DNA of 64,000 nucleotides, taken from positions 104,904,001-104,968,000 of the forward strand of contig CM097886.1 of the NCBI GenBank assembly GCA_044892525.1. The letters run 5' to 3'. The notes beneath the pieces were generated by a model. That model was not told the origin of the DNA. It ran no database searches and saw only the letters and a list, made by a program, of their open reading frames with translations. Source of the stretch: Schmidtea polychroa. Taxonomy: Eukaryota. Numbering within the stretch: position 1 is the first letter of the stretch; every line of letters starts with the position of its first letter. The position numbers and the translations under genes were made by a program. Positions 3,997 to 34,361 of the stretch are shown piece by piece.

Positions 3997-4535
3997 TGTT
4001 GGCGTATGTGGAGAAGAGAGAAAAATATGCATGCCTTTCCATCACACCTATCAAGCATCATCACTCCGTTATACATTTTCTACACATACTCCAGATGATT
4101 GATCGCATATTCCCACATATGAGCCCATGGTGATGTTCCATGTTGGTGCTGCTCACACGGGTCGGAAAAGGTTAGCAGGTGAGCCCCTGCCTTAGGACTA
4201 CTCCTAACCCTGTCTCGGTTCGGGTCCTACGGTGCCTTAGAAGGTCTTACCCACATACATGCGTATCACTCGGTCTGATCCTGGTCCAAAGGAACAACCT
4301 TCAACCCTAATTACCTTCATTCCGCAGCATTATCTCATCTACTCTAATTGCACAAACAAATGTATGAAAACTTGACAAAACTGAAATCAAACAGAAAATT
4401 TTATTGACACTGAAACGATAAAAATATCATTACCACTAACAGATCAACAGCAGTCAAAAATATATAACATTAGCAGAATTCACAAGGTAATTTACAACTC
4501 GATGAAGAAAAAATCAAGCTCAATTGTACGTCGCG

Positions 4536-5297
4536 TTAGACAAAGTCATCCCCACCTGCAAGCATCTCATCTATGTCGACCGGTAATCGGCTATCTACAA
4601 TATATTTGATGCCCCCGGCCGGAACAATGCGGAAGACTTCTTTCGAGGGGATTGAATGGGTGGACGATATTTCTTGGATTTTTGATTGCGCCGCCGATAA
4701 GGACGCCTCGAGTGCTGTCATCGCATCTCGGCGTTTTTGATTCTTCTCGGCTCGAGTTGGCCGTTTCCGTTTGCGAGGTGGCAGATTATCTCCTACAGCC
4801 GTGGTGACACTAGATGCCACGAGAATTGGAGCCAGAATTGGGTCCGAAGGACCGCCTACCTTTGGCTGATGGCCTGACAACACTGGGGCTGGAATGGGCG
4901 GCAGTTGTGAGCCGTGCCCCTGACAGTTCGAGCTGGAAGATGTAGAAGACTGGTGGTGAAGGGGAAAGACATTCATCCCATCCAGAACGGGAAATTCTCG
5001 CACCCGCTTCGCCAGTTCTGCCTCCGTATATACTTTATGGAGGGCTTCTGATTGTGCTTTGATAGTGAGCCGCTGGCAACGGCTTTCCTCTAGCAGGCTG
5101 TCCCTGCAATGCTCCAATCGGAGAATTTTCTTGCGTTCCTCTTTCATTTGTGGCGGGGAGAACCACGTTCCTTCATAGAGATCAATTCTCTTTTTGAGAG
5201 CCCCGATATATAAGTGAAGTTGGGCGATATCCGCGTTCTTGTCCGCACAAGAAAAACACGGGCGAAGTTCTTTGGCGTTGTTGTACGATGTAGCCAT
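4536..5297 (-). CDS. LTR-encoded 253-aa protein (copy in 3' LTR), unknown function
   Basis: N-terminal CxxC and coiled coil, a Pro/Ser-rich linker and a basic NLS-like PPRKRKR...KRR. A TTTTCTAG acceptor-like site lies directly before the ATG. Confidence 0.65.
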   Translation of the reverse strand: MATSYNNAKELRPCFSCADKNADIAQLHLYIGALKKRIDLYEGTWFSPPQMKEERKKILRLEHCRDSLLEESRCQRLTIKAQSEALHKVYTEAELAKRVREFPVLDGMNVFPLHHQSSTSSSSNCQGHGSQLPPIPAPVLSGHQPKVGGPSDPILAPILVASSVTTAVGDNLPPRKRKRPTRAEKNQKRRDAMTALEASLSAAQSKIQEISSTHSIPSKEVFRIVPAGGIKYIVDSRLPVDIDEMLAGGDDFV

Positions 5298-6483
5298 CTA
5301 GAAAATCAATCATTGTTTATGTTTACTCGAAAAACCTCTATCAGTGCGATAAAAATCAAATTTTGGGGCATGGTTTTGGAGTTTTATCAAACATACCACC
5401 CAACAATGACCCACAGACCTCTTCATCCATCTCTATTCGCAGTCATTCAGTTGCAAGCATTCAAATCTCTTCACCTGATTCGTGTAAATTAAGAAAAGCA
5501 AACGGGGATTTCATGCACAAAATTCTCCCTCTCTAAACCTCGCCCTTTGGATTTGTTTTCGGATGGGACAATTCCCAGGTAAAGCTCGTCTTTTACTTTA
5601 TTCCCTTCAACCTTGTTCCCCTTAGTATATTTTTATTTAAAAATTTGCCGATATCATTATGGCAATCCGTCGATGTAGGCGTACCTAAAATTACAGAGAA
5701 ATAATTCACGGCGACGGAATAGATTATTTATGTTTTTATCTCGTTCAAAATTATGGAATTGATCATGTAATCAGTTGAAAATTCAGCTCTAAATCTACAT
5801 CTAATTAATTCCAATAACGCGTCGAAATCGTCGTCATGGAAAACGTTTACTTGTGATTATGCATTATGACTGAATGTGTAGGTGTGTCATTACTCCTGGT
5901 GGTATCTGTAACTGTATGTTGGCTATCACCGCGAATGATGGTTTATGCTGTTATGAGAAATTATTATATATCGAGTTGTGTAGGGGAAATCCATTCCTTT
6001 ACTTCATCCTATTATCTCGCTGTTCTAGAAAAGTTCATATTATCATGCCGCTATTACATCACCAAAAATCGTGGATTTACTTTTACACTGCCCTATGTAG
6101 ACTTGACTGTGGTGTGCGTGTGTATGTGCATTCTCAAGTCGGAATAATATGGGTTGCGTAATAGATTCCTCAAACAAGCAGCCGTAGACGAATCGGAAAG
6201 TCAGATTAATCAATCTGAGTAGGCGACAAATTAGTAGATTATTGAGTAAGCTCGATGTTATTATCTAATTCTCTTTCACGATATTAATTCAGGCCAATGA
6301 CTATCAGCTTATCCATTTGACATTTCTCCAGAAAACCGACACGTTATCTCTTTCTCTAGGACATTATCCGCTATCTCCTGTCGACTAACTCTACGCTGGC
6401 TAATGTAAATCAACTGATTTCGTTATCGTTGGCAACTATTGCCTGCGAGCTCGAAGTGAGGATTTTGATAATTTCACTGCAAG

Positions 6484-6843
6484 ATGTTTACTTTCCTGTC
6501 AGCGAGAGATTTTTTATCACTGGCATCGGCGATTCAAGGACGACAGTTCCATCGTAAGAGTACATCGATAATGGATGTAGCCGCTAACGTTTTGACGGCA
6601 CAAATCAGACAGAGCCTTGCAAATGCAGTACGTTGCAGAAAAATCGTTGGATTTACTCGCAATCTATGGTCAACACTGTTCTTTCCCAACTACGTCGATC
6701 GAAAGGCTGAATATCATGAAAAATTTTCTCCTAGCTATGTGGATTATTATCGAATCAGTATGAACGTCAATGCCAATCTCGATCTGAATTATCTGCATTC
6801 GAAATTTAAATCATCTCTACAACTATTGGAAATCTCGGTGTGA
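6484..6843 (+). CDS. Antisense LTR ORF, 119 aa, unknown (second copy 32620-32979)
   Basis: ATG-initiated with protein-like composition. No motif recognised. Confidence 0.3.
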   Translation: MFTFLSARDFLSLASAIQGRQFHRKSTSIMDVAANVLTAQIRQSLANAVRCRKIVGFTRNLWSTLFFPNYVDRKAEYHEKFSPSYVDYYRISMNVNANLDLNYLHSKFKSSLQLLEISV

Positions 6844-7607
6844 CTAACTGAACCGATGGTACGCTCTATGGACGATCGCGCTTGATGAAGGAAATTTCAC
6901 TTCCCAACTGGATTTTCCACCTACTGAGTTTCTTCACCCCTCATGACACACCCAAGAAGGCATTCATTGCTGCCACCTTCTTGCACCGTCATGAGGGACC
7001 AATCAACTCGTTTCCATTCAATTAAATCAACAATAAAATAATCAAAATGAATGATGGGTAAATGCATAAATAAAATTTACCCGGCGACCATATCATTTGG
7101 ACTCCAAGTATGATGTTGCTCATCCTACATAATCGAAACCTCATCGTCTCCTTGGTGGATCTCTAATATGACAACTACCACTCTCTGTAAATATCGCATT
7201 CGCATTTCAGCATGTTCGTGATTTCTTATGAAGACCAACCTTCTACTGTGGTGGTTCTCTACCGCAGTACAATTCCAACTCGTCCACATCATACTGGGAG
7301 TTCTCAGATGGTACAGTCGCCGGCACCATGAAGAAAGGCAGCTTTTCATTTAAATAAATTTATTGTATGAAATTGTTTTTATTATATTTATAACCATTAA
7401 CGAAATTAAACTAACAACCATAAATAAAGCAACTGTCGAGACATACCTTGAGTTTCGAAAACTGGAGTTAAATCGGTTGAATTTAAAATTTGTCCTGAAT
7501 AGATTTGTGGTTTGGCCTCTATATATTCCTTCCTCGGTTTGGTTTGGTAGTCTCTGAACTAGTTCGCTGTAGGATAATTTAGTCAAAGGTTCCGAAATCT
7601 GTAAAGT

Positions 7608-7677
7608 CTGTAGAATATTTTTTAAAAGTGGTCATAACGAACCAAAGTTTACCTGTAGAATATTTTTTAAAAGTGGT
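7608..7677. repeat. Two 25-bp direct repeats in the LTR (CTGTAGAATATTTTTTAAAAGTGGT), U3-side enhancer candidate
   Basis: Exact copies at 7608-7632 and 7653-7677, mirrored in the other LTR (+26136). Confidence 0.6.
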
Positions 7678-8456
7678 ACTCTACAGATATTTTCCGTTCC
7701 TTATATATTATTTTTCGTCCAATCAGGACACGACTTGTTTGTATTTTTACTATTTATTATTATTTTTATGTTTTTTATTATAATATATTAGATTTTAATG
7801 ACTTAACTTATTTCTTATTATTATTTTATTTATTTTCTTATTTTTATTATTTTCCTCCTATTTTTCCTGTGGATTTATTGCTACTTTATTGTAATATAAT
7901 TTTTTGTTTTAATTAGACTTAAAGATAGTTTTATTTTTATTTATTTCTTAAATTTCTCGTTTATTTGTTGTCACTTTTTTACTTATTCTATTCTATTTCA
8001 TCTGCTGGGTCCTAAATCGCTTTATTTCTAAATCTTAAGGGGTTTATTGGGTTTTATTTAGTTTGTTTTACTTATTCTTATTCTCTTATTGATATTTTAT
8101 TGTTCCTTTTTGATTTATTAGTGGGAATTTGATGGTACTTTATATTTTTATTTTATTTCGTTTATTTTTCAAGGATTACTTTTCTATTCGCTCCAGTTTT
8201 CGAAACTCCGCGTTTTAGCCCAACAAATCACTCCGGGGCCCGTTAAAATTGCGCCCCGCAATTCACATAATATCATACATTTAAATCATACCTTCTTTCG
8301 GCATAACAACTAATTTCACGGTCAACATTCACACAACCATAAAATTAAAATAACTAAATAATACTTTAATTAAACAGATAAAAGGACAAATATAAGCAAG
8401 CAGTAGCCACTTTAGGTGACCGGATTTATACACACAAAGTTTATGAATGGTCGATG

Positions 8457-9092
8457 TCACATGATCTCAAGGTTCGGAATGTTATTACTGTCTTGGTTGG
8501 TTGAATTCTGGGTCGGATGGCTGGTTGAAGTTGTTATCGTGGGGAGCTGGATTGTAACAGGCATTTGGTCAGGAGATAGATTTTGTTGCATTTGGTCGGG
8601 TGGGTTTGGTTGTTGAAAATGTACTGCTCGTTTATGTTTATTTTTCGGTCGTGGGTTCTTTCTTTCGTGTTTCTCGGATAGTGACTGGTTTCTTCTCCAT
8701 GTTCGATGAATATCATACGCTTTCCAGATGACTAGTGCGCAGATGATAAGGGTTTCACTGATGGTAGCATAGAGTAAGACTTGACTTTCTTTTACTTCCT
8801 TCTTCCCGATGATTTCCTTCAAGGATTGTTGGGTGGTTTGTTCTTGTAAGAGAATTTCGAGCTGTTCGATTTTTTGGGTTTGTAGGTGGAGTTGCATTTG
8901 AAATTTTTTCCAGACGGCTTTGTTCCAGCATTGTTTCGGGATGTTGTTGGAGAGCTTTCTTTCGCTTTTCAGTTTGGTTAACGGGTTTTGCTGTTTCTCG
9001 GGATTCTCCCAGAGTGTTGGGATTGGCTGCCACATGGGTATTCCGTTTATCGCTATCATCATTATTGTCACCAGGGTTGCTCCGAACCACAT
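8457..9092 (-). CDS. Accessory type I membrane protein (signal peptide, coiled ectodomain, TM, tail)
   Basis: MWFGATLVTIMMIAING signal-like N-terminus; hydrophobic VLLYATISETLIICALVIW followed by basic residues. Confidence 0.7.
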   Translation of the reverse strand: MWFGATLVTIMMIAINGIPMWQPIPTLWENPEKQQNPLTKLKSERKLSNNIPKQCWNKAVWKKFQMQLHLQTQKIEQLEILLQEQTTQQSLKEIIGKKEVKESQVLLYATISETLIICALVIWKAYDIHRTWRRNQSLSEKHERKNPRPKNKHKRAVHFQQPNPPDQMQQNLSPDQMPVTIQLPTITTSTSHPTQNSTNQDSNNIPNLEIM

Positions 9093-9147
9093 ACTACTAT
9101 ACGAAAATTTTTATTTACAATTATTTACATTGATCATTCATCTTTAA

Positions 9148-9849
9148 TTATTGCCGGGTTTTCTTTTTACGGGTTTTCTTGGATGTTCTCATCACTCTCG
9201 TTTCTGCTTTTATTACTCGTTTTCTTAATTCGGGTAGTACTTTTAATTGTTTGTCTCTTTCGTCTAACTGTTGCTTTAGGGTTATTATTTTTTCTTTTAG
9301 TGCTTTTATTTCTTGTGTTGCTCTTTCGAGGTTTTTATGGTTCATTATCTGTAGAAAATCATTTTCCCTTTCCCCGTCTTCTTCGTTGTCTATTTCCTGG
9401 TATTTGTTGTTCATTCGTCTCATTATCTCACATTCTTTCTGTTTTTGGTGTAGTTGGAGTTGTAACTCTTTCAGGCTTTCTTGGTGTTTCCGTGCCTCGG
9501 TTTTCCAATAGTCACTAATCACTTCGTCGGCCTTTCGACTGGCCCTCTCCTGCCATAATTCTTCCGCGATCTTTTCCCAATTTCTCCCTCGCTTTCTTTG
9601 CTCGTGAAGCCATTCGTTTTCTTCCTCTACTTCTTTCTTTACTTCTTCTAACAAGATATATTCTCTTTTCAATACTTTAATCATTTTTCGATTATCTCTC
9701 CACCTTTCTACTAATCTTTCGTTTTCCTGTCTCTCTTCTTGTAATTCTTCCTTGATAGTTTTCTTCCTCTCCACTTCATCAACTTCAATTTCTCCCTCTT
9801 CTAACTCGATTATAGATGTTATGATGGGTTGTCCGTTTTCAGTGTTCAT
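9148..9849 (-). CDS. Accessory coiled-coil protein, 233 aa
   Basis: E/K/R/Q-rich heptad pattern and a basic C-terminus. Same strand as the polyprotein. Confidence 0.7.
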   Translation of the reverse strand: MNTENGQPIITSIIELEEGEIEVDEVERKKTIKEELQEERQENERLVERWRDNRKMIKVLKREYILLEEVKKEVEEENEWLHEQRKRGRNWEKIAEELWQERASRKADEVISDYWKTEARKHQESLKELQLQLHQKQKECEIMRRMNNKYQEIDNEEDGERENDFLQIMNHKNLERATQEIKALKEKIITLKQQLDERDKQLKVLPELRKRVIKAETRVMRTSKKTRKKKTRQ

Positions 9850-10023
9850 TTTCTATAATATATACATAATTAATAATTGCGCTACAGTGCGTCTTATACT
9901 TATACATTTATATGTTATTTTATAATCAGGGTTACAGTCCCTTTCATACTTTTACTGTACCATTAATTTTTTTGGTTGGGATACAGGTCCCGATTTTTAT
10001 ATTTTTTATCTTTCCTTTTATCT

Positions 10024-11061
10024 TTATACAAAGGTCTCTTCCTTGCCTACATATCCTTCATCGCTTTCTACTGACATTTGTAATTGGAGTGCGATGGGAT
10101 CAAATGGGATGTAGTACCGGGGAATCTGCGCTCTAAGTTCTTGGACTTCGTCTCTTAGCGCTCTTGACACATTGAGTTCCTCGTCCAATAGGTAGGTTAA
10201 ATACCTAGTTTCGTCATCCCGTACTTCTATCTGTTTTTCTAATTCTTCCGCCTTTTCGCCGTTCTCCCATTTCTTGATCTCCTTTTCGAGGTTCTTGATA
10301 TTTTCATCATACATCTTCCTCTCGTTTTCTAATTTCTTATTCTTACCGGCTAGCACTATATTCCTTTGTTCTAGTGCCCCTTTGTAGCCGTTATTGTCTC
10401 TTTCGAGGTCTGTCACCTTATTTACGAGTTCGACGATTCTACCTGACTGTTGCAGGATCATCTCTTCCATGGCGGTATTCTCTTGTTCCTTTATAGACAA
10501 TTTCATGGCTAGATGCCTTTCAAATTCCATGGCCTTGGTCTGCCAGGTTTGACTTCGTGCCGCTATTTTCCTGAGCCTTCTTAGCTCTTCTCTCTGATCA
10601 AGGTTTTCCTCCCATTTCCCTTGTTCACTTTCGTATTCCAATTTCTGAGGTAATTCTCTCATCTCTGTTTTGATTTCCCGATGTTGTCTTTTCCACTTTC
10701 TGGCTTCTGCCAAGAGTTGACGAGATTTCCTTTCCTCTTTTTGTTTTTCCATCTCTCGTTTTTTATTCTCGTCCGTCAGTCTTTTTCTCGATTCCTGTAC
10801 CAATTGTTTTAAGTAGTGACCGTGAGCTTCCTGTCGCGTATTTTCTAATGCTGCCCACTTGGCGGCTCTCTTACAGGCCTCTGCCTCTGCTCGTAAATTT
10901 TGCACCAACCACTGAAATTGGTGGTTTTCCCATTCCCTTGCTTCTTCAAGGTAGTTTCGTGTCTTATTTGCTAATTGCGCCATCACTTTGGCCCATCTTT
11001 CTCGGTGTACTCCATTGATTTTTATTTCATGGTTTGGGGCTTCCGTTCGTTCTTGTGTCAT
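10024..11061 (-). CDS. Accessory coiled-coil protein, 345 aa
   Basis: Long helical E/K/R-rich ORF on the same strand. Confidence 0.75.
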   Translation of the reverse strand: MTQERTEAPNHEIKINGVHRERWAKVMAQLANKTRNYLEEAREWENHQFQWLVQNLRAEAEACKRAAKWAALENTRQEAHGHYLKQLVQESRKRLTDENKKREMEKQKEERKSRQLLAEARKWKRQHREIKTEMRELPQKLEYESEQGKWEENLDQREELRRLRKIAARSQTWQTKAMEFERHLAMKLSIKEQENTAMEEMILQQSGRIVELVNKVTDLERDNNGYKGALEQRNIVLAGKNKKLENERKMYDENIKNLEKEIKKWENGEKAEELEKQIEVRDDETRYLTYLLDEELNVSRALRDEVQELRAQIPRYYIPFDPIALQLQMSVESDEGYVGKEETFV

Positions 11062-11279
11062 CTTATCTGAATAACGAGATTATCAACTCAACGTCTCACA
11101 TTTATATTTGTTCTATTATTTATTTATTGTTACGAATATAGGTGGGTTGGGATTTTTCGAGGTTTTCCGCTTAAATTTACCTTTAGTAGATTTGGGGTTT
11201 TTCTACACTAGTATATAATATTTTACTGGATATATACGCCGATATTTACAATTTATTATATACAAAATTATTCGTCTCC

Positions 11280-12756: not shown

Positions 12757-13140
12757 TTATTGACTGGAAGAGTCGGCCTCTTGTCCGCCCTCTTCCCTAC
12801 TGGTTAACCATTCTGACCAGTCTTCTATCTCTTCTCTTTCCATTTCTTCAGCGATTCTCATTAACTCTTCCTCCTGTCCCTGACTGTACCGCAATATTCG
12901 CTCTATTTCCCGCTGCATTTGTTCTATCTTCATTCGCTGATCTTCGATTATTCTTACATAACTGAAGCCTTTATTTAAACTTTCGACTAAGCTTCTTTGT
13001 GCAGCGAGTCCTTGTTCCTGTAAATTCGAAATCACTTGAGTTAACATTGCACATTGCTGCTTCCACATCTCCTCGGTTGTCGTACTGTGGTTTACTTCAT
13101 CGTTTATTCGCTCCATTCTTAATTTATTTACACTTTTCAA
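12757..13140 (-). CDS. Accessory small coiled-coil/acidic protein (first ATG at 13116)
   Basis: 127-aa ORF directly downstream of the polyprotein stop, with heptad pattern and acidic C-terminus. Confidence 0.55.
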   Translation of the reverse strand: MKSVNKLRMERINDEVNHSTTTEEMWKQQCAMLTQVISNLQEQGLAAQRSLVESLNKGFSYVRIIEDQRMKIEQMQREIERILRYSQGQEEELMRIAEEMEREEIEDWSEWLTSREEGGQEADSSSQ

Positions 13141-13284: not shown

Positions 13285-16200
13285 CTATATTTGTGAGTTT
13301 GGAGGGCGCTGAGCATTCCAGGCCTCCACCCACTGTTCCTGCTTGATATTACTTGGTCTCTTTACCTGATGTTGAAAATTTCTGATTCTGGCCATCTCCA
13401 GTTCTCCGCGATGCCGTCTATCTTTGATTATTTTTATGGTTCCCCCCATTATGATTAAAAATGCCCCTGCTATTATTATACCGCTGATCCACATCATCTG
13501 TTTCATGCTTATGATTTCCGCTTTTTCCTTGTTCGTTATTGTTGGTATTGCCTCTGTGCTTTTTAGATTACCACCTTTGTCATTTCCTTTTATCATTCCT
13601 CGTATTCTTGCTATTTCTTCGTTCATGCCTTCCTTTGCCATTTTTTGTATTTTCTCCATCTCTTCTTCTGACACGTAATTATCTTGATATTTCTCACTAG
13701 TTTTCTTGCGCTTTTCTTCCTCTTCTTTCTCATCGTTGCTTTTTCTTTTCTTCCCTCTTTTCCCAGGGTATCGTCGACATTCTCTCGCTGTATCGTTTCT
13801 CCAGATGCATACTGTGTATTCTTTTGGAGGTTGTTGCTGTGTTACATATTGTAGATAGTCTTCACCCGGTCCTAATCTTGAAATGCAGACTTTGTGTTCT
13901 TTTCTTGGCTGGAGTTGCGTTATCACTACCTCACCTCCTTTTCTCAGGTGTACCTCCTTCCCTTTGACTTTAGTTATTCTCTTCCCGTCTCGATTCCGGT
14001 ATGCTTCTTGTATTCTTACTTCCGTTATCGGTTCTGTATCTTCATTTATTAATACTAGTCTCCGATATGCTCTCGACATACATCTTCCTAGTATGCACCT
14101 TTCTTTTAGATCCCATTCTTCTTTTAAATCCCATTGTTGCTCTCGTACTTGCTTCTTCTTTTCTTGCTTTAGTTCCTTCTCCTTGTTATCTTTGTTTTCC
14201 GTTTCCTTGGCTTCTTTTATCGTTCTCATTCCACCGTGGGCTGTTATCATTTCTACCATTGTTAGTATGAGTATCATTACCATCATATTTGTCTCCATTT
14301 CCTTGTTGGTAAAAAGTAGGCATACCCTCTGTTTCCCATTATTCGTCTTTTCCTCTTCCTTTGTTCGGCTTCCCGGTTTATTTTCCTCCTTTTTTATACC
14401 TGAGTCGTTATTCCCTTGATTATTCTCCTCTGATTTCTCTTTCTCTCCATTCCCGTTTCGACCTTGTTCATTATTATCATCGTCTTTATCGTCTTTATCT
14501 CCCCCGCTGTCGTTTGAAATGTCGTCCTCGACATTTATGTCGTTCAATAATCTGCGATATGCTGTTAACACTCTATTTCTTGCTAATTTCGCTTCGAATT
14601 CGAACTCCCTTCTGCCTGTTGCTGCATGTCTCTTTCTATTCCATTCTTTTACTAATTCTCTTAATTGTATTCGACGATGTTTTCCGATTCGCTTTTGTTC
14701 GTTTTGATTTTGCGTAAATTTGAGGTCTTCTCTGTTCAATACGATCATTATGATTTTCGGAGTTCCTCCTTTTGTCAGCGTATTTTTAACCATGGCATTT
14801 TCCCCGTTTTCATAGAACTCATTTATGTTTATTGCATATGTATTACTTTGTGGTATTTTCCATGTTAGCAACAACTTCATGGCTTCTAAGTTCTTCCGTA
14901 TCGTGTTCCATTGGAACTGTGACGTGTTTTTACAGATATTTTCTACCTCAGTTCTTGTAGCATTTTTACGAATGAATCTAATCATTTCTAAGTTTGGTTG
15001 TATTGTTGCCCAATCCATGCTAGAATTTCCTTCGTTTGATATTTCGTCAAGTCTCGAACCTGATTGGTGTAGTATGTGTAAAGTTTTCGGGTGTATATTT
15101 GTTATTGCTGCATACATCATTGCTGTTTCTCCTTGTTCGTTTTTTGCATTTGATTCTTCTCCGAAGTCTCTAAGAATTCTTATGATGGTTATTGCTCTGT
15201 TTTCTTTTGCTGCTAAAATGGCTTGTTGTAATGGTGTTCTTGAATCTTTTGTTGGTAAGGTGAATGCTAGTGGTATGAATGTTTTTATTTTACCTATGTC
15301 TAGATTTGTGGTCTGATCTCTTGCGTAGGTGTGTACTGTTTTGGTTATTTTTGCTAGTATCGCTTCATCGGATAGATCTTGCATTTCTTCAAAGAATACT
15401 TCTTTAGCCTTACGTACTACTATCTCTTGGTCGGAGTTTATTGTCTTTGGTTTACTTGTTGTTGCTATATCGGTTATTGTTTGATCGACTTGTTCCTCAG
15501 ACTCTCTTGCTTTTACTTTCTTCATTTTTATCTTTTTCTTGTTCGAACTGTTAATGCGTTCCTCTGCCGTTAGAACTTGGATAATACTTAGGTAGTTTTC
15601 TCGAATGTTGTTCATAGTTTCCATCATCTGTAAAACACTCACGGTTTCCCAAAACTTTACTTGTACTTTATCGGTAAATTGAGATATGGCTTTTTCGAAG
15701 TTGGTAATTCGTTTTCTGATTAGTTGTTCGTCTTTGTGATTTGAAAACTTTATGCCACGTTGTAGTAGTTGATTTGGGATCTCGAATAGGTGATGTCCCC
15801 TCATCGCTTCTCTCATCAAGGTGTTTTCTCCTTTGGTAAATGTTTCGTTTATATCTACCATGTAATCGTTTTTGATCGGGTTTCTCCACGAAATTAGTAT
15901 TCCAGTAATTGTTATTAATTTCTCTTTGATTGCAGTTAATAACCCGTCATACATGTTTCCTATCTCCCTATTATCCTCGTATGATAATAGATCTACTAAG
16001 ATTATGAAGGCTTCCGTACTTTTCCCTTCGATTGCCTGGTGTAGTGCGTTTTTCTGGTTGTGATCTTGTGTGGTTATCTTTGACCCAGTTTCGAGTAATG
16101 CGATGATAATATCTTTAGCTTTATCCCGATTGGCTGCTATCATTAGTGGGGTGTAACCTTGGTTATTTTCTTGATCCGTCGAAATGTTACAGTCGCGGAA

Positions 16201-22200: not shown

Positions 22201-25200
22201 TACTATATCTAGTTTATTCGGAGATGCTTGTCTGCATTCCTCTATATCTCTCAGGGAGTATTTTTCTCTTAATACCGAATTGTCACAGTCGTAGATTGTA
22301 AATCCAGCTGCTCCGCTGGTACAGAGCATCCATATCATCATGGTCATCATTAGTGAATTAATCGACGCTTTTCTGCTGGCTGGGTCCTTTAATGGCAATT
22401 CCCATTCTAGCTCGTTTAATAATTTTTTCAACCTGATTTGCATTGATCTCTCTTGCTCGTTTTTTCGTGGTGCTTGTATGAGTCTTTTCCACCCTCCGGC
22501 ATGGATAATATGTGGTTCGATTGTACTTTCAATGATTGTAACTGTCATTTCTACATGATTTGCGAATTGTTTGTTAGGTATTTTTCTCGCTGCTAATCCC
22601 ATCAAATTGTACATTAGATACGTTAACACTACTAAATGATGTTCGTCGTCGTTTGCGTTTAGAGTTAATTGTTCGATTACTCTTCTTGTCTCTTCCCAAT
22701 CGGTTTTAGTGGTTTTTGTCTTTTCTTTGATTAATTTTGGAATTATTCCGGATATTGTATTCCATAGCTGTCTGGCATGCACGCTTGCTACTTTTCGTTG
22801 CCATAACCGTCTCAATTGCGGGTTTGTTATTATTAACATATCTTTTACCAGCTCCCGTATCCATTTTTCACCTCTCTCGATTGTTGGTTGAGCCTCTTTT
22901 AGATCCCACACTATTTTATCCAATTTCTCTAATCTGACTTGTCCTTGTTCTTGTTTCAACTGTTCTCTGGTTTTGAATTCTGGTTTTTCTCCTTGCTTCT
23001 TGGGCCTCCCTTTTGCCCGTTTTTCCATCATTGTTCCAGCTTCTCTTGTCTTTTCGTAATTCGGGTTTCTCTCGTTATCTGTTCTTGGCAATGAGCTATC
23101 GTTGTTTCTCAGCCACTCATTCCATTCGTCTATTATTTTGTCTGTTTGACCTTCCGGTGTTACTCTTGTTGGTCCGTTTTGTTTTTGGAATTGTTCGTCG
23201 GTTTCGGTTTCTGTCGTATTATCGATAATTTCCTCAATACTCAACTTACCCGGTTGTTGATAACTAGTTGACGGCTGGCTTGTTGTCCAAATCTCTGCCC
23301 CTGTCGGCCATCTCACTAGTATTGGCGATCTTTCTCCCGCTCCTTCATCGCTGTCTTCCAATATGATCTCTTCGATTTCTTCAGTTTCGTTCGATTTACT
23401 CGCCGCTTTGTCAGGGCTTGGTGTACTCAAGCTACCTTTCGTAGGTTTATCGGATTTACTTTTCTTTTTGATTGGTTTTCCCAATGTTTCTGCCATTGTC
23501 AATACATTGATCTCCCCTAATCTCATGGGTGTTATTCCGACGTCTGCATTATCATCTAATGATTTTCCGAATAGTTGTAGGTGAAATGGAGTTTCGTAGG
23601 CCAATTTCTTTTTTAACTCTCTGATCTTTGTTGTTGGATGCACATCTATATCCTCGATGCTCTTGTCGGGATATTTGACTCGGATACGATATCTTTCTTG
23701 GGTATCTTGTGCCCATTCTTGATTTCTCCATTTTCTAATAATTTGTTCTAGCTGTTCTGGATACCATTCGTTATACTGTCGGTATTCTTCTATCGCCTTC
23801 GCCATCTCTCTTAGATTGTGGATATTTTCTGATGTCTTTAGTATGATGGTAGCTAATGCTACTACTTGTCGCTTTTGATTTTTTGCTCCCATTGCTAAGA
23901 TATCACCTAATTGTTTGTATCTTTCCTTCTCTTCTCGTTCTCTCGCTTCTTTTGCCTCTTCACCGTCTATGTCGGCGTATTCGCGTTCCTTCTTTCTCAT
24001 CGCATGAATATGCCTGATTTCGGTTTCACTTTCTGACGTAACATCCGTTTCGCTTGCGTTGTCCGATATCGATTCCATTTCGTCCTCTTCGTATTTTGGA
24101 GGTTCATCTTCCTCTTCTGCTGATTCACTTCCTATCTCGCCAATGTCTGTTTCTACGAAAATCCCTTTCCTGATTTCCCATTCTTTGTTTTCCGCATTCC
24201 ACATCCTTTCCCATGGAGTTCGTCTGCAAGATCTGGTACTCAGTTTCTTTATTTTTCCTTGAAGCTCTTTTTCCTTTAGCCATTGTTGATGAATTTCAAT
24301 TATCTCCACTGATTTTTGGTATAGCGTTTTCATCCTGTCTCTTATCTCTTTCTGGTATGTTACATCTCTTGTTCGAAATTCGTCCATGGGCAATATTCTA
24401 ATGATTTGATGATTATCCCACATTCCCATTTCACTTAACGAGGTATCGTCTTCAGCCCGTAGTATTATTTTATCGTACATCATGACTACGTCATCTATCA
24501 TACCATCGCTGCTCTCGCTTCGAACTTTTTCCGTTATTTCTTGGTTTATCTTTGATACTAAATCGTCCACCGTATTCTGGTTGCTCATTTTTATTCGTCG
24601 TTTCTCCTCGTTTGGTAACCATATGGTTATTTCCAATTTCTGCGGTTGCGTTTCTTTTAATCTTCCGTATTTGTGGATCAAATTTATGGTTCTCCAATCA
24701 CTCATTCGGAGTAATTCTGTATCTCGCAGTCGGCTCATTAGTTCATGCATGTCGGGAGTTCGTCTTGTTATGAGCAAATCCCAGTTATCTTCAACTTGTT
24801 CTTGGATTTGTTTGATTAATTTATCTAGATTTCGTCTTAGAGTGCATTGTTTTAGTTGCTCCAACTTCAGCTTGATATTAAAGTCATACTCGGCCTTGGC
24901 GTCTTTAGCCCATTCGTGAATATTTGCTGGTTGCTTCTCTTTATGCAACTTCAATATTTGAGTTTCTCCTGGCCAGATCAATGCATCTATTAGGTGCATG
25001 TCTGGTTTGATCTGTTCTCCTTGATATTGATACAGGTATTCTTTCTTTCTCGAGCTGCCCAAATGTTCTCTTATCCAATCGAAAAGCTCGTCTGTAACTG
25101 CATTTTTTATCCATATTCTCTCGAGTCCTTTACTCGTTCCGATTTTTATTACATAGCGTGTTGTCTCTGCTTGTTTCATTTTTTCCATGTACTTCTTTAT

Positions 25201-27159
25201 TATCCTCTTTTCCTCGTTTGGTATTAGATCTTTTTCGTTTCTTTCTAGTTTCATTATCTTTTGTATGAAGCGTCTGTATGGTATAATGTCAATGAAATCC
25301 TGGTTTCTTACTACCACTGGAAGTATTTCTTTTACTTGTTTTATCGCTTCTTCTCTTTCTTTTCTCAATTTCATCTCGATATTCTCATCTTCACTTTCGC
25401 TTGTCACATCGCTTTCACTCTCATCTTCATCTGCTCCGATCTTTTCTCTTAGTTGGTCGATGTTTTCATTTAACTGTAACATTTCTCCACCAAGGCTACT
25501 CACATAATCCTCATCGTCATCTGTTGACAACACCTTCTTTGTTGTCCTCATCATATTAATTCGCAAATTTCTCATTCTTGGTACTTTCCTTAGCTTTTTG
25601 TTCTCGAATATCGTTAGCTCCTCTGAGTCTAATTCTTGTATCATATCATGATTTAGATGATTAATCTGTTTTTCCTTTTTGTTATTTTCTGCTTCTGCTT
25701 CTGGTTTTGATTTCTCATTTTCCCTTTCGATTTTATCTTTTATCTTTTTCCAGAATATTTTCTGAATTCTCTGATTTCCTTTTAGCGGTGTTGTTGGAGT
25801 TTCTTGGTTAGCTGTTGTAATCGTTTCTTTCGGTTTCTCTGGTTCGCTCACAGGTACAACTCTTGGATTTTTACCGTAATTGTAACAATATTGCTCTTTT
25901 ATCTCTTTTACCATTCTCATCATATTTATTCGTAATGGTTGTTCTTGTCGCTGCTGAATTCGTTCTCTTTTTATTCTCTCTTCTTCAGCTTGTAGTCTCT
26001 GCCATTCTTGTGCATGTTGTTGCACTTCATAATTGTTAAGATTCTCGGTACTCCTCATCATGCGTATGTTCTGGGTTTGTTGTGGTACTTGTTCTTGTCT
26101 CGGTCTCATCATTTGTTGCATCATCTGCTTCATTTGTGAAATTTCTTGCATCACATTCATTTGCTTTCCCTCACTGGGGTTACTTTGTCGTTGCGGATTT
26201 GGTGCATAATTATTATTTCGTTGTGGTGGTCGTTGTTGTTGGCCCCTTTCGCGACAGTCTCTTGAGATGTGACCTGGTTGACCACAGTTAAAACATCCTC
26301 TCAATTGACATATATTTTCCGTGTGTCCTCGTCGTCCACACCTATTGCAATTGGCGTTTCTATAACAGTCTCTATCCCAATGCCCTGGTTTACCGCATGT
26401 TCGGCATTGTTTGTTATCGTTCGTATTTCGTCGATTATTAAAGTTGTTCCCATTGTTCGAGTTGTTGCGTTCACTGTTATTTCCATTTGATCGTCCTTGT
26501 GGTGGTTTGAAAATTTGATGCGCACCGGGTATAAACTGATTCATTTTTGGTTCATGATTGTTGTTCTCTCCATTTTCAGTTTTTACCGTTGCTGTTGCGA
26601 TTCTTCCCTCCTCTTGCATGACATTCATTTGTGCCGGGAGGTGAAGTTCGCATCTCGTGGCCCAATCTATGGCCTCCTCTAGTGTTTTACACATTTGACA
26701 TCCCACCGAGGCTCTTACCTCCTCTCGGCGTAGTCCTTCTATGAAATAACCAATTAAATTTTCCTCCGGCAAGTTTCCGTTCATGGCCTTCTTTGCCAAT
26801 CTTCGCAATTCGCTTGCGTATAACGTTATTGATTCATTTGCTCTTTGTTTTCTACTCGCTAATTCTCCTAGGGCTTGATTTATTGGTTTGCTGGCTCCGA
26901 AAGTTTTTCTCAAAAATGTTTTGATGTTTTCCCAATTGTCCAGCTTCGTATTTCTTTCTTTAGCTTCTAAGTACACTTCTAATGCGCTATCGCATAAAAA
27001 CAACGGCATCCGTTTACTAATTGCTTCGGACGTCCATCCACACACATCGATATAGACTTCAAAATTGGTTATGAACGTTGCCAACTTGTTCGCATTCCCG
27101 TTGAATGGCTCGCCTCTAAATTTTTCTTTATACTCGTCGGTTTTTACCCCATTCGTCAT
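13285..27159 (-). CDS. 4,624-aa Gag-Ubl-Bcl2-Env-PR-RT-RH-IN-ankyrin-membrane polyprotein
   Basis: One uninterrupted ORF with all catalytic motifs intact: DTG, YIDD, RNase H DAS...E...D, and integrase HHCC and D,D35E. Confidence 0.97.
   Translation of the reverse strand: [4624 protein letters not shown]
13430..14290 (-). other. C-terminal membrane module: second signal-like segment, FN3-like ectodomain, TM anchor
   Basis: [34 protein letters not shown] resembles FN3 strand F; [19 protein letters not shown] followed by KIIKDRR. Confidence 0.55.
14960..16290 (-). other. Two clusters of ankyrin repeats
   Basis: [18 protein letters not shown]...[40 protein letters not shown]. Confidence 0.85.
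16600..17700 (-). other. int: Integrase (HHCC, DDE core, GPY/F)
   Basis: H....GGH...C..[37 protein letters not shown]. Confidence 0.96.
17915..18290 (-). other. RNase H domain
   Basis: [33 protein letters not shown] and NANADCMSR. Confidence 0.95.
18400..19170 (-). other. rt: Reverse transcriptase domain (Ty3/Gypsy)
   Basis: [51 protein letters not shown] and YIDD (18694-18705). Confidence 0.97.
19640..19975 (-). other. pro: Aspartic protease domain
   Basis: [19 protein letters not shown] (DTG at 19915-19923) and the IIGTD motif. Confidence 0.95.
20460..22355 (-). other. env: Env: internal signal peptide + class III (chuvirus G / herpes gB-like) fusion glycoprotein + TM
   Basis: [23 protein letters not shown]...YSL.DIEEC...C.I.....YYCG; later DC..NKEIL...LA....P......[39 protein letters not shown]. 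This Cys pattern is the one I recall for chuvirus-type glycoproteins. Confidence 0.8.
22474..22870 (-). other. Bcl-2-like domain
   Basis: Helical region ending [14 protein letters not shown], which resembles the BH2 consensus L..WI...GGW. BH1 is degenerate. Confidence 0.6.
23494..25160 (-). other. Three ubiquitin-like (beta-grasp) domains: ~24940-25160, ~24388-24640, ~23494-23695
   Basis: Each ~70-85 aa shows the beta-beta-alpha pattern (I.V.....T..I.V....T...L...I), then an L.Y/F.G..L.D...L motif and a terminal I.L strand. Confidence 0.55.
26255..27159 (-). other. gag: Gag domain: capsid-like region and three CCHC zinc knuckles (26255-26406)
   Basis: [28 protein letters not shown] and [14 protein letters not shown]. 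The upstream region has retrotransposon-gag-like [18 protein letters not shown]. Confidence 0.92.
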
Positions 27160-28376: not shown

Positions 28377-28592
28377 TTACGACTGGCTGGCACTTTTCAA
28401 CAGCTCAATCTTCATTATCTTGACCGGTTGGACTATTCAACAACTCGATCTTACGACTGGCTGGCACTATTCAACAGCTCAATCTTCTTCTCCTGACCGG
28501 TTGGAGTATTCAACAACTCGATCTTACGACTGGCTGGCACTATTCAACAGCTCAATCTTCTTCTTTTGACCGGTTGGACTATTCAACAACTC
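28377..28592. repeat. 3 x 73-74-bp tandem repeat in the 5' leader, each built from two ~37-bp subunits
   Basis: Units start TTACGACTGGCTGGCAC at 28377, 28451 and 28524. Confidence 0.9.
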
Positions 28593-29190: not shown

Positions 29191-29670
29191 CTAACTGAAA
29201 TAGATTGTGTGCTTCTCTTTTATTACACATGTGCACATAGAACAACGGATTAAATTGGCGGCGCATTCGTCACAATTACTAAGGTGCCCACAAGGTAGAA
29301 TCAGAGTTTTGACAGGTCGCATCTTGCAAATGTTACAAATTCTCAAGGCCGCTGCTTTCTCTACTATTGATGTTCGTATCCGCTGAGACAGAGTTTTGAC
29401 TTGTTCGCGTATCCTCACATATTCGATGTTCAGAGCGGGGTCGTCGAGTCGTTGCTGCATCCATTGGTAATGGGTAGACAAGTCAGTGTTGGTAGTTGTT
29501 GATCCTAATCTGTCGGTTAGAAAGTTTTGTTTGGATATCAGCGGTGCGTTGTGGCGTTGTTGCTCTAAGAGTTCTATTTGTTTCAGTTTCTCTCTTAATA
29601 TCTTTATCGAATCATTTTCTATGTCGATGAATCTGCTTAGCTGTTGTAGATGTTTTCTAGCTTCCGACAT
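29191..29670 (-). CDS. Coiled-coil + C-terminal IAP/Mdm2-type C3HC4 RING protein (putative E3 ligase)
   Basis: CNICKMRPVKTLILPCGHLSNCDECAANLIRCSMCTCVIKEKHTIYFS. The terminal RING plus hydrophobic tail is typical of IAP-like RINGs. No BIR domain. Confidence 0.88.
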   Translation of the reverse strand: MSEARKHLQQLSRFIDIENDSIKILREKLKQIELLEQQRHNAPLISKQNFLTDRLGSTTTNTDLSTHYQWMQQRLDDPALNIEYVRIREQVKTLSQRIRTSIVEKAAALRICNICKMRPVKTLILPCGHLSNCDECAANLIRCSMCTCVIKEKHTIYFS

Positions 29671-30107
29671 ATCTAAATGAAGGTGTTGTTATTATTTTGT
29701 TCCTGCTGGTATTAACAATAATATTATTATGTTTGTATTTAATATTCGTTGACTTTTATGTGTTAGTGTTTTAACTTTTGTATTTTATTCGATCTTTGAA
29801 ATTCCTCTTTCATATTTTTTCGCTTTAATCATTTACTTTCTTTCGTCCCCCCTTTTATTTTAACCAGTTAATATTAACTACAATAACTAATTCCCGTTTT
29901 CTTTTCTCATCATGCCTCATCACATTCATTCCAACTCATTTAGGTTCGTTTCATTCACCACATACTCTATTTCAAACTCAGACAGTTCGTATCATTTCAT
30001 TGCGCTATAATTCGTTTCAGCCCCGATTCCATTCTTATCATAATTAATTAGATTGTTAATCTAACACATCATAACACAAAAATAGACAATCAAACAAATC
30101 ACTGTAA

Positions 30108-30125
30108 ATCCCGGCTGAGCCCCCA
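30108..30125 (-). promoter_or_regulatory. Primer-binding site, tRNA-Pro type (TGGGGGCTCAGCCGGGAT)
   Basis: Matches the classical tRNA-Pro PBS TGGGGGCTCGTCCGGGAT at 16/18 positions. Starts 7 nt after the 5' LTR. Confidence 0.85.
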
Positions 30126-30132
30126 AAAATCA

Positions 30133-33100
30133 TGTTGGCGTATGTGGAGAAGAGAGAAAAATATGCATGCCTTTCCATCACACCTATCAAGCATCATCAC
30201 TCCGTTATACATTTTCTACACATACTCCAGATGATTGATCGCATATTCCCACATATGAGCCCATGGTGATGTTCCATGTTGGTGCTGCTCACACGGGTCG
30301 GAAAAGGTTAGCAGGTGAGCCCCTGCCTTAGGACTACTCCTAACCCTTTCTCGGTTCGGGTCCTACGGTGCCTTAGAAGGTCTTACCCACATACATGCGT
30401 ATCACTCGGTCTGATCCTGGTCCAAAGGAACAACCTTCAACCCTAATTACCTTCATTCCGCAGCATTATCTCATCTACTCTAATTGCACAAACAAATGTA
30501 TGAAAACTTGACAAAACTGAAATCAAACAGAAAATTTTATTGACACTGAAACGATAAAAATATCATTACCACTAACAGATCAACAGCAGTCAAAAATATA
30601 TAACATTAGCAGAATTCACAAGGTAATTTACAACTCGATGAAGAAAAAATCAAGCTCAATTGTACGTCGCGTTAGACAAAGTCATCCCCACCTGCAAGCA
30701 TCTCATCTATGTCGACCGGTAATCGGCTATCTACAATATATTTGATGCCCCCGGCCGGAACAATGCGGAAGACTTCTTTCGAGGGGATTGAATGGGTGGA
30801 CGATATTTCTTGGATTTTTGATTGCGCCGCCGATAAGGACGCCTCGAGTGCTGTCATCGCATCTCGGCGTTTTTGATTCTTCTCGGCTCGAGTTGGCCGT
30901 TTCCGTTTGCGAGGTGGCAGATTATCTCCTACAGCCGTGGTGACACTAGATGCCACGAGAATTGGAGCCAGAATTGGGTCCGAAGGACCGCCTACCTTTG
31001 GCTGATGGCCTGACAACACTGGGGCTGGAATGGGCGGCAGTTGTGAGCCGTGCCCCTGACAGTTCGAGCTGGAAGATGTAGAAGACTGGTGGTGAAGGGG
31101 AAAGACATTCATCCCATCCAGAACGGGAAATTCTCGCACCCGCTTCGCCAGTTCTGCCTCCGTATATACTTTATGGAGGGCTTCTGATTGTGCTTTGATA
31201 GTGAGCCGCTGGCAACGGCTTTCCTCTAGCAGGCTGTCCCTGCAATGCTCCAATCGGAGAATTTTCTTGCGTTCCTCTTTCATTTGTGGCGGGGAGAACC
31301 ACGTTCCTTCATAGAGATCAATTCTCTTTTTGAGAGCCCCGATATATAAGTGAAGTTGGGCGATATCCGCGTTCTTGTCCGCACAAGAAAAACACGGGCG
31401 AAGTTCTTTGGCGTTGTTGTACGATGTAGCCATCTAGAAAATCAATCATTGTTTATGTTTACTCGAAAAACCTCTATCAGTGCGATAAAAATCAAATTTT
31501 GGGGCATGGTTTTGGAGTTTTATCAAACATACCACCCAACAATGACCCACAGACCTCTTCATCCATCTCTATTCGCAGTCATTCAGTTGCAAGCATTCAA
31601 ATCTCTTCACCTGATTCGTGTAAATTAAGAAAAGCAAACGGGGATTTCATGCACAAAATTCTCCCTCTCTAAACCTCGCCCTTTGGATTTGTTTTCGGAT
31701 GGGACAATTCCCAGGTAAAGCTCGTCTTTTACTTTATTCCCTTCAACCTTGTTCCCCTTAGTATATTTTTATTTAAAAATTTGCCGATATCATTATGGCA
31801 ATCCGTCGATGTAGGCGTACCTAAAATTACAGAGAAATAATTCACGGCGACGGAATAGATTATTTATGTTTTTATCTCGTTCAAAATTATGGAATTGATC
31901 ATGTAATCAGTTGAAAATTCAGCTCTAAATCTACATCTAATTAATTCCAATAACGCGTCGAAATCGTCGTCATGGAAAACGTTTACTTGTGATTATGCAT
32001 TATGACTGAATGTGTAGGTGTGTCATTACTCCTGGTGGTATCTGTAACTGTATGTTGGCTATCACCGCGAATGATGGTTTATGCTGTTATGAGAAATTAT
32101 TATATATCGAGTTGTGTAGGGGAAATCCATTCCTTTACTTCATCCTATTATCTCGCTGTTCTAGAAAAGTTCATATTATCATGCCGCTATTACATCACCA
32201 AAAATCGTGGATTTACTTTTACACTGCCCTATGTAGACTTGACTGTGGTGTGCGTGTGTATGTGCATTCTCAAGTCGGAATAATATGGGTTGCGTAATAG
32301 ATTCCTCAAACAAGCAGCCGTAGACGAATCGGAAAGTCAGATTAATCAATCTGAGTAGGCGACAAATTAGTAGATTATTGAGTAAGCTCGATGTTATTAT
32401 CTAATTCTCTTTCACGATATTAATTCAGGCCAATGACTATCAGCTTATCCATTTGACATTTCTCCAGAAAACCGACACGTTATCTCTTTCTCTAGGACAT
32501 TATCCGCTATCTCCTGTCGACTAACTCTACGCTGGCTAATGTAAATCAACTGATTTCGTTATCGTTGGCAACTATTGCCTGCGAGCTCGAAGTGAGGATT
32601 TTGATAATTTCACTGCAAGATGTTTACTTTCCTGTCAGCGAGAGATTTTTTATCACTGGCATCGGCGATTCAAGGACGACAGTTCCATCGTAAGAGTACA
32701 TCGATAATGGATGTAGCCGCTAACGTTTTGACGGCACAAATCAGACAGAGCCTTGCAAATGCAGTACGTTGCAGAAAAATCGTTGGATTTACTCGCAATC
32801 TATGGTCAACACTGTTCTTTCCCAACTACGTCGATCGAAAGGCTGAATATCATGAAAAATTTTCTCCTAGCTATGTGGATTATTATCGAATCAGTATGAA
32901 CGTCAATGCCAATCTCGATCTGAATTATCTGCATTCGAAATTTAAATCATCTCTACAACTATTGGAAATCTCGGTGTGACTAACTGAACCGATGGTACGC
33001 TCTATGGACGATCGCGCTTGATGAAGGAAATTTCACTTCCCAACTGGATTTTCCACCTACTGAGTTTCTTCACCCCTCATGACACACCCAAGAAGGCATT

Positions 33101-34361
33101 CATTGCTGCCACCTTCTTGCACCGTCATGAGGGACCAATCAACTCGTTTCCATTCAATTAAATCAACAATAAAATAATCAAAATGAATGATGGGTAAATG
33201 CATAAATAAAATTTACCCGGCGACCATATCATTTGGACTCCAAGTATGATGTTGCTCATCCTACATAATCGAAACCTCATCGTCTCCTTGGTGGATCTCT
33301 AATATGACAACTACCACTCTCTGTAAATATCGCATTCGCATTTCAGCATGTTCGTGATTTCTTATGAAGACCAACCTTCTACTGTGGTGGTTCTCTACCG
33401 CAGTACAATTCCAACTCGTCCACATCATACTGGGAGTTCTCAGATGGTACAGTCGCCGGCACCATGAAGAAAGGCAGCTTTTCATTTAAATAAATTTATT
33501 GTATGAAATTGTTTTTATTATATTTATAACCATTAACGAAATTAAACTAACAACCATAAATAAAGCAACTGTCGAGACATACCTTGAGTTTCGAAAACTG
33601 GAGTTAAATCGGTTGAATTTAAAATTTGTCCTGAATAGATTTGTGGTTTGGCCTCTATATATTCCTTCCTCGGTTTGGTTTGGTAGTCTCTGAACTAGTT
33701 CGCTGTAGGATAATTTAGTCAAAGGTTCCGAAATCTGTAAAGTCTGTAGAATATTTTTTAAAAGTGGTCATAACGAACCAAAGTTTACCTGTAGAATATT
33801 TTTTAAAAGTGGTACTCTACAGATATTTTCCGTTCCTTATATATTATTTTTCGTCCAATCAGGACACGACTTGTTTGTATTTTTACTATTTATTATTATT
33901 TTTATGTTTTTTATTATAATATATTAGATTTTAATGACTTAACTTATTTCTTATTATTATTTTATTTATTTTCTTATTTTTATTATTTTCCTCCTATTTT
34001 TCCTGTGGATTTATTGCTACTTTATTGTAATATAATTTTTTGTTTTAATTAGACTTAAAGATAGTTTTATTTTTATTTATTTCTTAAATTTCTCGTTTAT
34101 TTGTTGTCACTTTTTTACTTATTCTATTCTATTTCATCTGCTGGGTCCTAAATCGCTTTATTTCTAAATCTTAAGGGGTTTATTGGGTTTTATTTAGTTT
34201 GTTTTACTTATTCTTATTCTCTTATTGATATTTTATTGTTCCTTTTTGATTTATTAGTGGGAATTTGATGGTACTTTATATTTTTATTTTATTTCGTTTA
34301 TTTTTCAAGGATTACTTTTCTATTCGCTCCAGTTTTCGAAACTCCGCGTTTTAGCCCAACA
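30133..34361 (-). repeat. 5' LTR (4,229 bp)
   Basis: Near-identical to 3997-8225; I saw one substitution (ccctgtctc ~4212 vs ccctttctc ~30348). Followed on the - strand by the PBS. Confidence 0.97.
30672..31433 (-). CDS. LTR-encoded 253-aa protein (copy in 5' LTR)
   Basis: Translation identical to 4536-5297. Confidence 0.65.
   Translation of the reverse strand: MATSYNNAKELRPCFSCADKNADIAQLHLYIGALKKRIDLYEGTWFSPPQMKEERKKILRLEHCRDSLLEESRCQRLTIKAQSEALHKVYTEAELAKRVREFPVLDGMNVFPLHHQSSTSSSSNCQGHGSQLPPIPAPVLSGHQPKVGGPSDPILAPILVASSVTTAVGDNLPPRKRKRPTRAEKNQKRRDAMTALEASLSAAQSKIQEISSTHSIPSKEVFRIVPAGGIKYIVDSRLPVDIDEMLAGGDDFV

Follow-up and report, generated by a model that had tools for sequence, protein, structure and literature searches.

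The window analysed here is a stretch of 64,000 nt from Schmidtea polychroa (assembly GCA_044892525.1, contig CM097886.1, positions 104,904,001 to 104,968,000 of the forward strand; coordinates below are those of the window). It contains a giant long terminal repeat (LTR) retroelement of 30,365 nt, located on the minus strand at 3997-34361 and bounded by TG...CA ends. The two LTRs (3997-8225 and 30133-34361; 4,229 nt each) differ by one mismatch (4212/30348) and no gaps; hence, the insertion is very recent. A 4-bp target-site duplication, GTGG, flanks the element, and an empty site with one GTGG is preserved in a duplicated host stretch at about 956-1000. The insertion target was a locally duplicated host repeat (853-2487, 3873-3996, 34362-35674 and 63626-64000) with copies in both neighbouring stretches as well. 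The primer-binding site (PBS) is complementary to the 3' end of tRNA-Pro(TGG) genes from the same genome, and its 7-nt offset from the LTR recurs in 11 of the 11 sibling loci where a PBS was found. Genes for this primer tRNA form a long tandem array with 475-nt spacing (G000:C1:130901009 onward, L089), and the tRNA-Pro(TGG) pattern has 1,555 matches across the whole genome. No purine-rich polypurine tract was seen ahead of the 3' LTR.

The main open reading frame (ORF) of the element, at 13285-27159 on the minus strand, encodes 4,624 aa in the order Gag-cargo-Env-Pol; it is accompanied by seven other ORFs in sense orientation, 119-462 aa long (Table 1). The order protease (PR)-reverse transcriptase (RT)-RNase H (RH)-integrase (IN), the TG...CA LTRs, the short target-site duplication and the tRNA PBS are traits of Ty3/gypsy (Metaviridae) elements. 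An earlier note, made from the sequence alone, had reported near-identical 4.2-kb LTRs, a target-site duplication, a PBS, a 4,624-aa ORF with intact catalytic motifs and at least seven accessory ORFs, and these observations are all borne out.

Table 1. Features of the element in the window (TM, transmembrane segment; Ubl, ubiquitin-like)
Feature	Coordinates	Strand	Remarks
5' LTR	30133..34361	-	4,229 nt; TATA-like site ~33836-33844; candidate 5' splice donor AAG/GTATGT at 33582; promoter and donor inferred from sequence
Primer-binding site, tRNA-Pro(TGG)	30106..30125	-	20 nt; begins 7 nt inward of LTR end
159-aa ORF	29191..29670	-	5' leader; coiled coil and IAP-type C-terminal RING; Pfam zf-C3HC4_3 E 2.9e-8; XIAP RING E 1.3e-8
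Gag	26245..27159	-	capsid residues ~17-175 and CCHC knuckles; Pfam Retrotrans_gag, zf-CCHC
Three helical-plus-Ubl modules	23482..25368	-	profile and Pfam
Bcl-2-like domain	22450..22947	-	BH2 GGW kept, BH1 NWGR lost
Signal-peptide-like hydrophobic stretch	22303..22353	-	residues 1603-1619, between Bcl-2-like domain and Env; aligned counterpart in Burro1-type family
Env fusion glycoprotein	20455..22302	-	Monjiviricetes-type PF24664 E 2.7e-72; 14 ectodomain Cys; TM 2180-2198
Pol	16555..19992	-	protease, dUTPase-like spacer, RT, RNase H, integrase
Two ankyrin-repeat blocks	14980..16272	-	after integrase; Pfam Ank_2 E 1.4e-15
C-terminal predicted type I membrane protein	13285..14298	-	signal-like stretch, all-beta domain, TM, short tail
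119-aa accessory ORF	12757..13116	-	charged; no family; homologue in Burro1-type family
TRAF, 462 aa	11280..12668	-	intronless; complete RING-Zn-coil-MATH; downstream of polyprotein
345-aa coiled-coil-like accessory ORF	10024..11061	-	without Pfam match; homologue in Burro1-type family
233-aa coiled-coil-like accessory ORF	9148..9849	-	sequence
211-aa accessory ORF	8457..9092	-	signal-like N-terminus, coil, TM, tail; third predicted membrane protein
253-aa ORF within LTR	4536..5297, second copy 30672-31433	-	TTTTCTAG/ precedes the ATG
3' LTR	3997..8225	-	4,229 nt; GTGG target-site duplication at flanks

Pol retains the PR DTG, the RT YIDD, the RNase H motifs and the IN HHCC and D,D35E motifs, and a dUTPase-like spacer with a weak Pfam match (E 0.13) occupies the expected place between PR and RT. 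Env is in frame between the Bcl-2-like domain and the protease, i.e., between gag and pol. Judged by its profile match, it is a gB-like glycoprotein, class III per the literature, and so shows the gB-type env trait of errantiviruses. It matched nothing in PDB by sequence or by profile, and it contains no furin site R-x-K/R-R. A Pfam scan found no matrix-like segment before the Gag capsid. Only the third Ubl module matches Pfam ubiquitin by itself (E 0.0056); a profile of five such modules, three from the window and two sister modules, finds ISG15/ubiquitin at E 1.4e-7. We conclude from these profiles that the ubiquitin-like homology is real but remote. At the other end of the polyprotein, a predicted model (pLDDT 71) shows an all-beta C-terminal domain, perhaps FN3/Ig-like. 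The layout of signal, beta domain and TM also ends the sister-family polyproteins and two others, P0001 and P0002, and a guess would be that this membrane protein serves attachment alongside the fusogen. Signal-like stretches, spotted by eye, lie at residues 1603-1619 and 4288-4307.

The motif [RQK][IMV][NC][MVAL][MLI] occurs 8 times in the polyprotein, against a mean of 0.43 and a maximum of 4 in 2,000 shuffles. Its occurrences are located at the capsid, nucleocapsid, PR, RH/IN and IN/ankyrin borders and are kept in siblings, and a slightly relaxed form has 8 matches in the polyprotein of the Burro1-type sister family (described below). The repeated border motif is likely the site of the element's own protease.

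The element belongs, almost certainly, to Burro, a family of giant Ty3/gypsy elements from planarians, as an intact, very young and abundant member; the earlier note had likewise pointed to Burro elements. Like published Burro elements, it exceeds 30 kb, has multi-kb LTRs and a very high copy number, and encodes a single ORF of about 4,600-5,100 aa (4,624 aa here versus 4,873 and 5,140 in Burro) that starts with Gag and CCHC knuckles. The env again lies between the BCL2-like domain and the protease, and MATH/TRAF (accessory here), Ubl and ankyrin modules are all present. In genome G000 we found a sister family (L069-L073) with a 4,791-aa frame, an in-frame MATH domain, an accessory TRAF and a BIR-RING IAP. 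Its content is the published Burro1 domain list, and we call it Burro1-type. It shares 88% RT-RNase H identity with the window element, and the two form a clade with 100/100 support in an RT-RNase H tree of 16 rows that omits partial matches and includes no outside reference sequences. The window element itself lacks an in-frame MATH domain and a BIR and so does not fit Burro1/GYPSM1 itself. In having its TRAF in an accessory ORF, with no MATH in frame, it resembles a Burro-like element of Dugesia tigrina, whose TRAF, however, lies upstream of the polyprotein rather than downstream (PMC6431247). A BIR-less IAP RING in the 5' leader and the three Ubl modules distinguish it from Burro elements as published. 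Possibly it corresponds to Burro-2, -3 or -4, with which the comparison is by published description.

How much of this was already known? PMC6431247 covers Burro1/GYPSM1 and Burro-2 to -4 of Schmidtea mediterranea, as well as the D. tigrina element with its TRAF accessory ORF. It lists MATH_TRAF, BIR, ankyrin, BCL2-like, Ubi/SUMO-like and dUTPase domains, places env between gag and pol, regards Burro elements as likely integrated proviruses and proposes that they meddle with apoptosis and ubiquitination. The earlier note knew of no retroelement described as manipulating its host with such cargo; since both the architecture, including env and TRAF, and the meddling idea appear in PMC6431247, the novelty is not supported. 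PMC13524379 describes six GAG-ENV-POL elements of gB type from S. mediterranea (Smed_errantivirus_1-6), which share with the window element a Ty3/gypsy pol, a gB-like env between gag and pol with flanking signal and TM, the lack of a conserved furin site and many intact copies. The main text of that paper differs in being silent on Burro, Bcl, accessory and fibronectin, and it gives no PBS tRNA for the six elements. Three features were not found in the literature searched, which did not cover Grohme 2018: throughout the lineage, the polyprotein closes with a further membrane protein made up of signal, beta-sandwich and TM; a likely protease site recurs between the modules; and the PBS lies 7 nt from the LTR. 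These three and the dN/dS data are absent from section 7 of PMC6431247. We conclude that the window element is a well-preserved new member of a published family, whose layout and proposed meddling with the host were previously published.

The earlier note had proposed conservation and dN/dS (the ratio of nonsynonymous to synonymous substitution rates) in sibling copies as a check on the cargo. A 2-kb pol probe yielded 1,050 candidates in genome G000 (781 Mb), and 40 of 40 scored copies were 95-100% identical. The TRAF ORF had 2,023 candidates; of the 92 matches that were scored, 86 were free of stops. For the Bcl-2-like domain, 150 matches out of 858 candidates were scored, and 68 of them lay within a frame no shorter than 4,600 aa, so that 68 or more copies have such a frame. 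All of these counts come from top-scoring subsets of the candidates. Pairwise dN/dS was computed between the window copy and 8-13 siblings, using parts of 13 copies of which one is probably a duplicate contig. Cargo modules gave 0.04-0.39 at dS 0.08-0.79. Within the polyprotein, the values were 0.03-0.07 for Gag, 0.04-0.06 for Ubl, 0.04 for both the Bcl-2-like domain and Env, 0.00-0.02 for PR/RT/RH/IN (0.00-0.12 for Pol with the dUTPase-like spacer), 0.05-0.08 for ankyrin and 0.13-0.19 for the C-terminal membrane protein. Outside it, they were 0.12 for TRAF, 0.27 for the RING ORF, 0.09 for ORF119, 0.08 for ORF345, 0.26 for ORF233, 0.39 for ORF211 (8 copies) and 0.18 for the LTR ORF253, where several comparisons were saturated. 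For a plus-strand ORF of 119 aa in the LTR, dN/dS was 0.75 and 2 of 4 copies had stops; it is probably not a gene.

Could a very active element simply have picked up its cargo by transduction and carried it as passive baggage? Such capture would fit the mosaic structure of siblings L003, L017, L020, L023, L026 and L029, in which pol is 92-94% identical and accessory/LTR blocks are 74-85% identical, as low as 74%; this mosaicism indicates recombination between subfamilies. However, the low dN/dS of the cargo, the TRAF frame open in most scored copies and the sharing of cargo with a family that is just 35-65% identical to it all argue otherwise. dN/dS is low on every sense module, and neutral decay is excluded even though the pairs are not independent and some are saturated. 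The baggage explanation is largely refuted and we consider it very improbable. These alignments place all of the cargo modules under purifying selection, in a family that is actively spreading.

Among the modules named in the earlier note, TRAF, the IAP-type RING, ankyrin and the fusion glycoprotein gave strong matches. The 462-aa ORF matches TRAF3 at E 1.1e-29 and the TRAF6 RING-zinc region at E 2.7e-14, and it has the full architecture of a TRAF. Pfam found no BIR in the 159-aa RING ORF or elsewhere in the window element; the RING ORF thus lacks the one or more BIRs that define an IAP. The Bcl-2-like domain alone gave a Pfam E of 0.033, and an alignment of nine element domains reached Bcl-2/Bcl-xL structures at E 1.4e-4 and the genome's other Bcl-2 domains at 94% (hhalign). 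A phmmer search with the third Ubl and the Bcl-2-like domain against 1.84 billion representatives gave 0 matches, a single-sequence PDB search with the cargo region gave none, and nothing scored at or above 0.9 in Atlas searches. We conclude from the profiles, the predicted helical fold and the retained BH2 motif that the Bcl-2-like homology is real but remote. The earlier identification of Bcl-2-like and ubiquitin-like modules therefore stands as to kinship, which sister-family profiles make real; each is weak by itself, and the Bcl-2 model is of low confidence. Elsewhere in the genome, multi-copy Bcl-2-like ORFs (L049, L050-L052) have ORFs for endonuclease VII, PolB-like proteins and integrase close by, which suggests that Polinton-like elements also carry Bcl-2 domains.

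The motif NWGR is the BH1 of the BH3-binding groove in anti-apoptotic Bcl-2 proteins and is visible in the aligned PDB rows. It is missing from 9 of 9 aligned element rows, which read DDEHH in the window and NRD, DKE or DRD in sister families. Hence, the window domain does not have the hallmark of an anti-apoptotic Bcl-2 protein. This bears on the targets favoured in the earlier note, death and TNFR/TLR-NF-kB signalling, worked out here as a scheme in which an infectious metavirus would deploy a poxvirus-like toolkit: a BH3-binding vBcl-2 and an IAP would block mitochondrial apoptosis, and TNFR/TLR-NF-kB signalling would be shut down. All of the named domain types are present and under selection, and the sister family has a true BIR-RING IAP. 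Large DNA viruses encode host-control proteins of these kinds (baculovirus IAP, poxvirus Bcl-2-fold and ankyrin proteins), and Bcl-2-fold proteins of poxviruses that have no BH motifs act as inhibitors of innate signalling. The captured domain kinds are the same; here, however, their carrier is an endogenous LTR element, in which some of them are modules of the polyprotein, and their functions are putative. The absence of BH1 from every element row and of a BIR from the window RING stands against a toolkit of this kind, and a simple anti-apoptotic story is disfavoured because both have been lost. The proposed pathway is also doubtful: a clear NF-kB homologue was not found in S. mediterranea according to PMC13563047, and PMC7958881 reports no canonical TLR in planarians. 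Of the earlier proposal, host-derived and selected death and ubiquitin modules survive; their assignment to TNFR/TLR-NF-kB is in doubt, and we regard the poxvirus-like scheme as distinctly unlikely.

In a different explanation, the cargo mainly serves the element's own assembly: ubiquitin-like, RING, TRAF-trimer, coiled-coil, ankyrin and Bcl-2-fold modules would tether Gag to membranes, promote budding or regulate how the polyprotein turns over, and host signalling would hardly be affected. In each of the G000 families examined, the Bcl-2-like domain sits immediately ahead of the Env signal, the Gag has no matrix-like segment, and Ubl lies ahead of Env even in distant relatives. At least two compact lineages, with frames of about 3,050 and 3,330 aa, are organized as Gag-(Ubl)-Bcl-2-Env-Pol without ankyrins. 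However, the element's TRAF has the complete architecture and closely resembles signalling TRAFs, and the sister family has its BIR-RING IAP. Moreover, the element MATH domains fall into three lineages among host TRAFs, though a single clade was not rejected (p-AU 0.13). In our view, it is unlikely that the cargo mainly serves assembly.

We lean instead, with some reserve, towards a Burro-type element that probably replicates in the manner of a complex retrovirus and whose selected, host-derived cargo likely dampens the stress and death signalling of the producing cell. Anatomy, copy abundance, selection and domain homologies were observed directly; from them we infer the following steps. tRNA-Pro would prime reverse transcription, and integrase would trim a long end of about 7 nt and make the 4-bp duplication. 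Internal signal peptides would flip the topology of the polyprotein, leaving Gag-Ubl-Bcl-2 cytosolic and anchored, Env in the lumen of the endoplasmic reticulum (ER), Pol-Ank cytosolic and the last domain luminal again. In such an ER-threaded polyprotein, the Env signal could anchor Gag-Ubl-Bcl-2 in place of a matrix domain. The element protease would cut at the repeated R/Q-I/M-N/C-M/V motif and free each module. Env would yield enveloped particles, which may pass between cells of the animal.

The seven accessory ORFs would be translated from spliced RNAs. Six of the seven accessory ORFs have a YAG 0-5 nt ahead of the start codon, and the matched siblings conserve it. These sites and the canonical donor in the LTR suggest spliced RNAs, which may arise by splicing from the LTR or by spliced-leader trans-splicing. 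A 105-nt GT...AG stretch that follows the donor (33478-33582, 7342-7446) is exactly absent from one sibling insertion, in both of its LTRs and in a duplicate contig (L008, L011), and counts as one event. The loss reflects either a retrotransposed spliced RNA or a deletion at AAG microhomology. A poly(A)-like end at 9967 was rejected as a transcript end; it lies on a genomic A-run and was taken as internal priming.

Within the producing cell, TRAF and RING, as adaptor and E3 ligase, would target the stress axis TRAF-TAK1/TBK1-MAPK and not canonical NF-kB. This axis is the likelier target because planarians have no canonical TLR or clear NF-kB, yet planarian TRAFs, TAK1, XIAP and TBK1 act in responses to infection, wounding and foreign nucleic acid (PMC4993586, PMC13563047). 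The BH1-less Bcl-2 fold would more probably serve as a scaffold or as a tether to membranes; a classical BH3 trap is less likely. On this sequence evidence we think it fairly probable that some of the cargo, at least, acts on the host; infectivity from cell to cell is possible, with the balance tilted slightly against it. A stronger version is rather unlikely: that these are live, enveloped planarian retroviruses, infectious from cell to cell, which enter by means of two parts, a gB-like fusogen and a C-terminal attachment protein found throughout the lineage, and which cleave their own polyprotein and use spliced accessory RNAs to supply TRAF, RING, ubiquitin-like, ankyrin and Bcl-2-fold effectors, so rewiring the stress and death response of TRAF-TBK1/TAK1.

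Several points weigh against the damping of host signalling by selected cargo, or against steps of its mechanism. Selection means that the modules matter to the element; action on the host does not follow. The dN/dS pairs all share the window copy, draw on top-scoring copies and include one probable duplicate, and some are saturated. Three polyproteins, P0001-P0003 (3,036-3,865 aa), have Env upstream of Pol and no Bcl-2 or ankyrin matches; hence, this cargo is not required across the lineage. Six of the eight sister rows in the Bcl-2 alignment were chosen for a Bcl-2 match or come from within that family, which makes the profile evidence partly circular, and the model of the domain is poor (pLDDT 46), with Bcl-xL as its top Foldseek matches at E 0.087. 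The signal peptides were called by eye, and a hydropathy scan flagged only the TM segments 2180-2198 and 4560-4578. The motif pattern was picked after inspection of the sequence and is absent from four tested stretches of two compact families (L038, L053, L058 and L059). No GT-AG joints were found at 8300-13300 in contigs of four runs, none of which is recorded as RNA. Finally, PMC8532177, which reports BURRO1 RNA in the intestine following PIWI loss, found that BURRO1 RNAi did not rescue smedwi-2 knockdown animals.

If the stronger version, with live and infectious Burro retroviruses, holds, an accessory strategy like that of DNA viruses operates in an LTR element, and element-borne TRAFs form part of the planarian TRAF expansion that has been counted. 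Transcriptome counts stand at 121 MATH domains and 282 contigs (PMC6109357, PMC7586133) and need to be checked for element origin because intronless TRAFs of element origin number in the hundreds; apart from these, contig C2 has a cluster of host TRAFs. The window copy supplies the sequence-level evidence that bears on the question of Burro meddling raised in the 2019 review PMC6431247, and the likely cleavage borders define cargo units to express.

Among the relatives, P0001 and P0002 each have three aspartic-protease-like domains, one of them after integrase. The P0001 cluster has 21 near-identical members, and those with contig data lie on contigs of 15.8-16.9 kb. Compact sister families have another accessory ORF (L058:2177-4342, L063:7768-9225), DEDD exonuclease-like by eye and without a significant Pfam match.

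Two further elements follow in the window. A Polinton/Maverick-like element at 35900-51100, with inverted repeats near 35934-36254 and 50771-51102, encodes a double jelly-roll capsid (36878-38170), an integrase with a phospholipase A2-like domain (38188-39573), an A32 ATPase (39570-40367) and a protein-primed PolB (45942-50735). The second, at 51347-63340, is bounded by inverted-repeat arms of about 1 kb that are 95% alike and carries a PolB and endonuclease VII ORF at 56214-58955.

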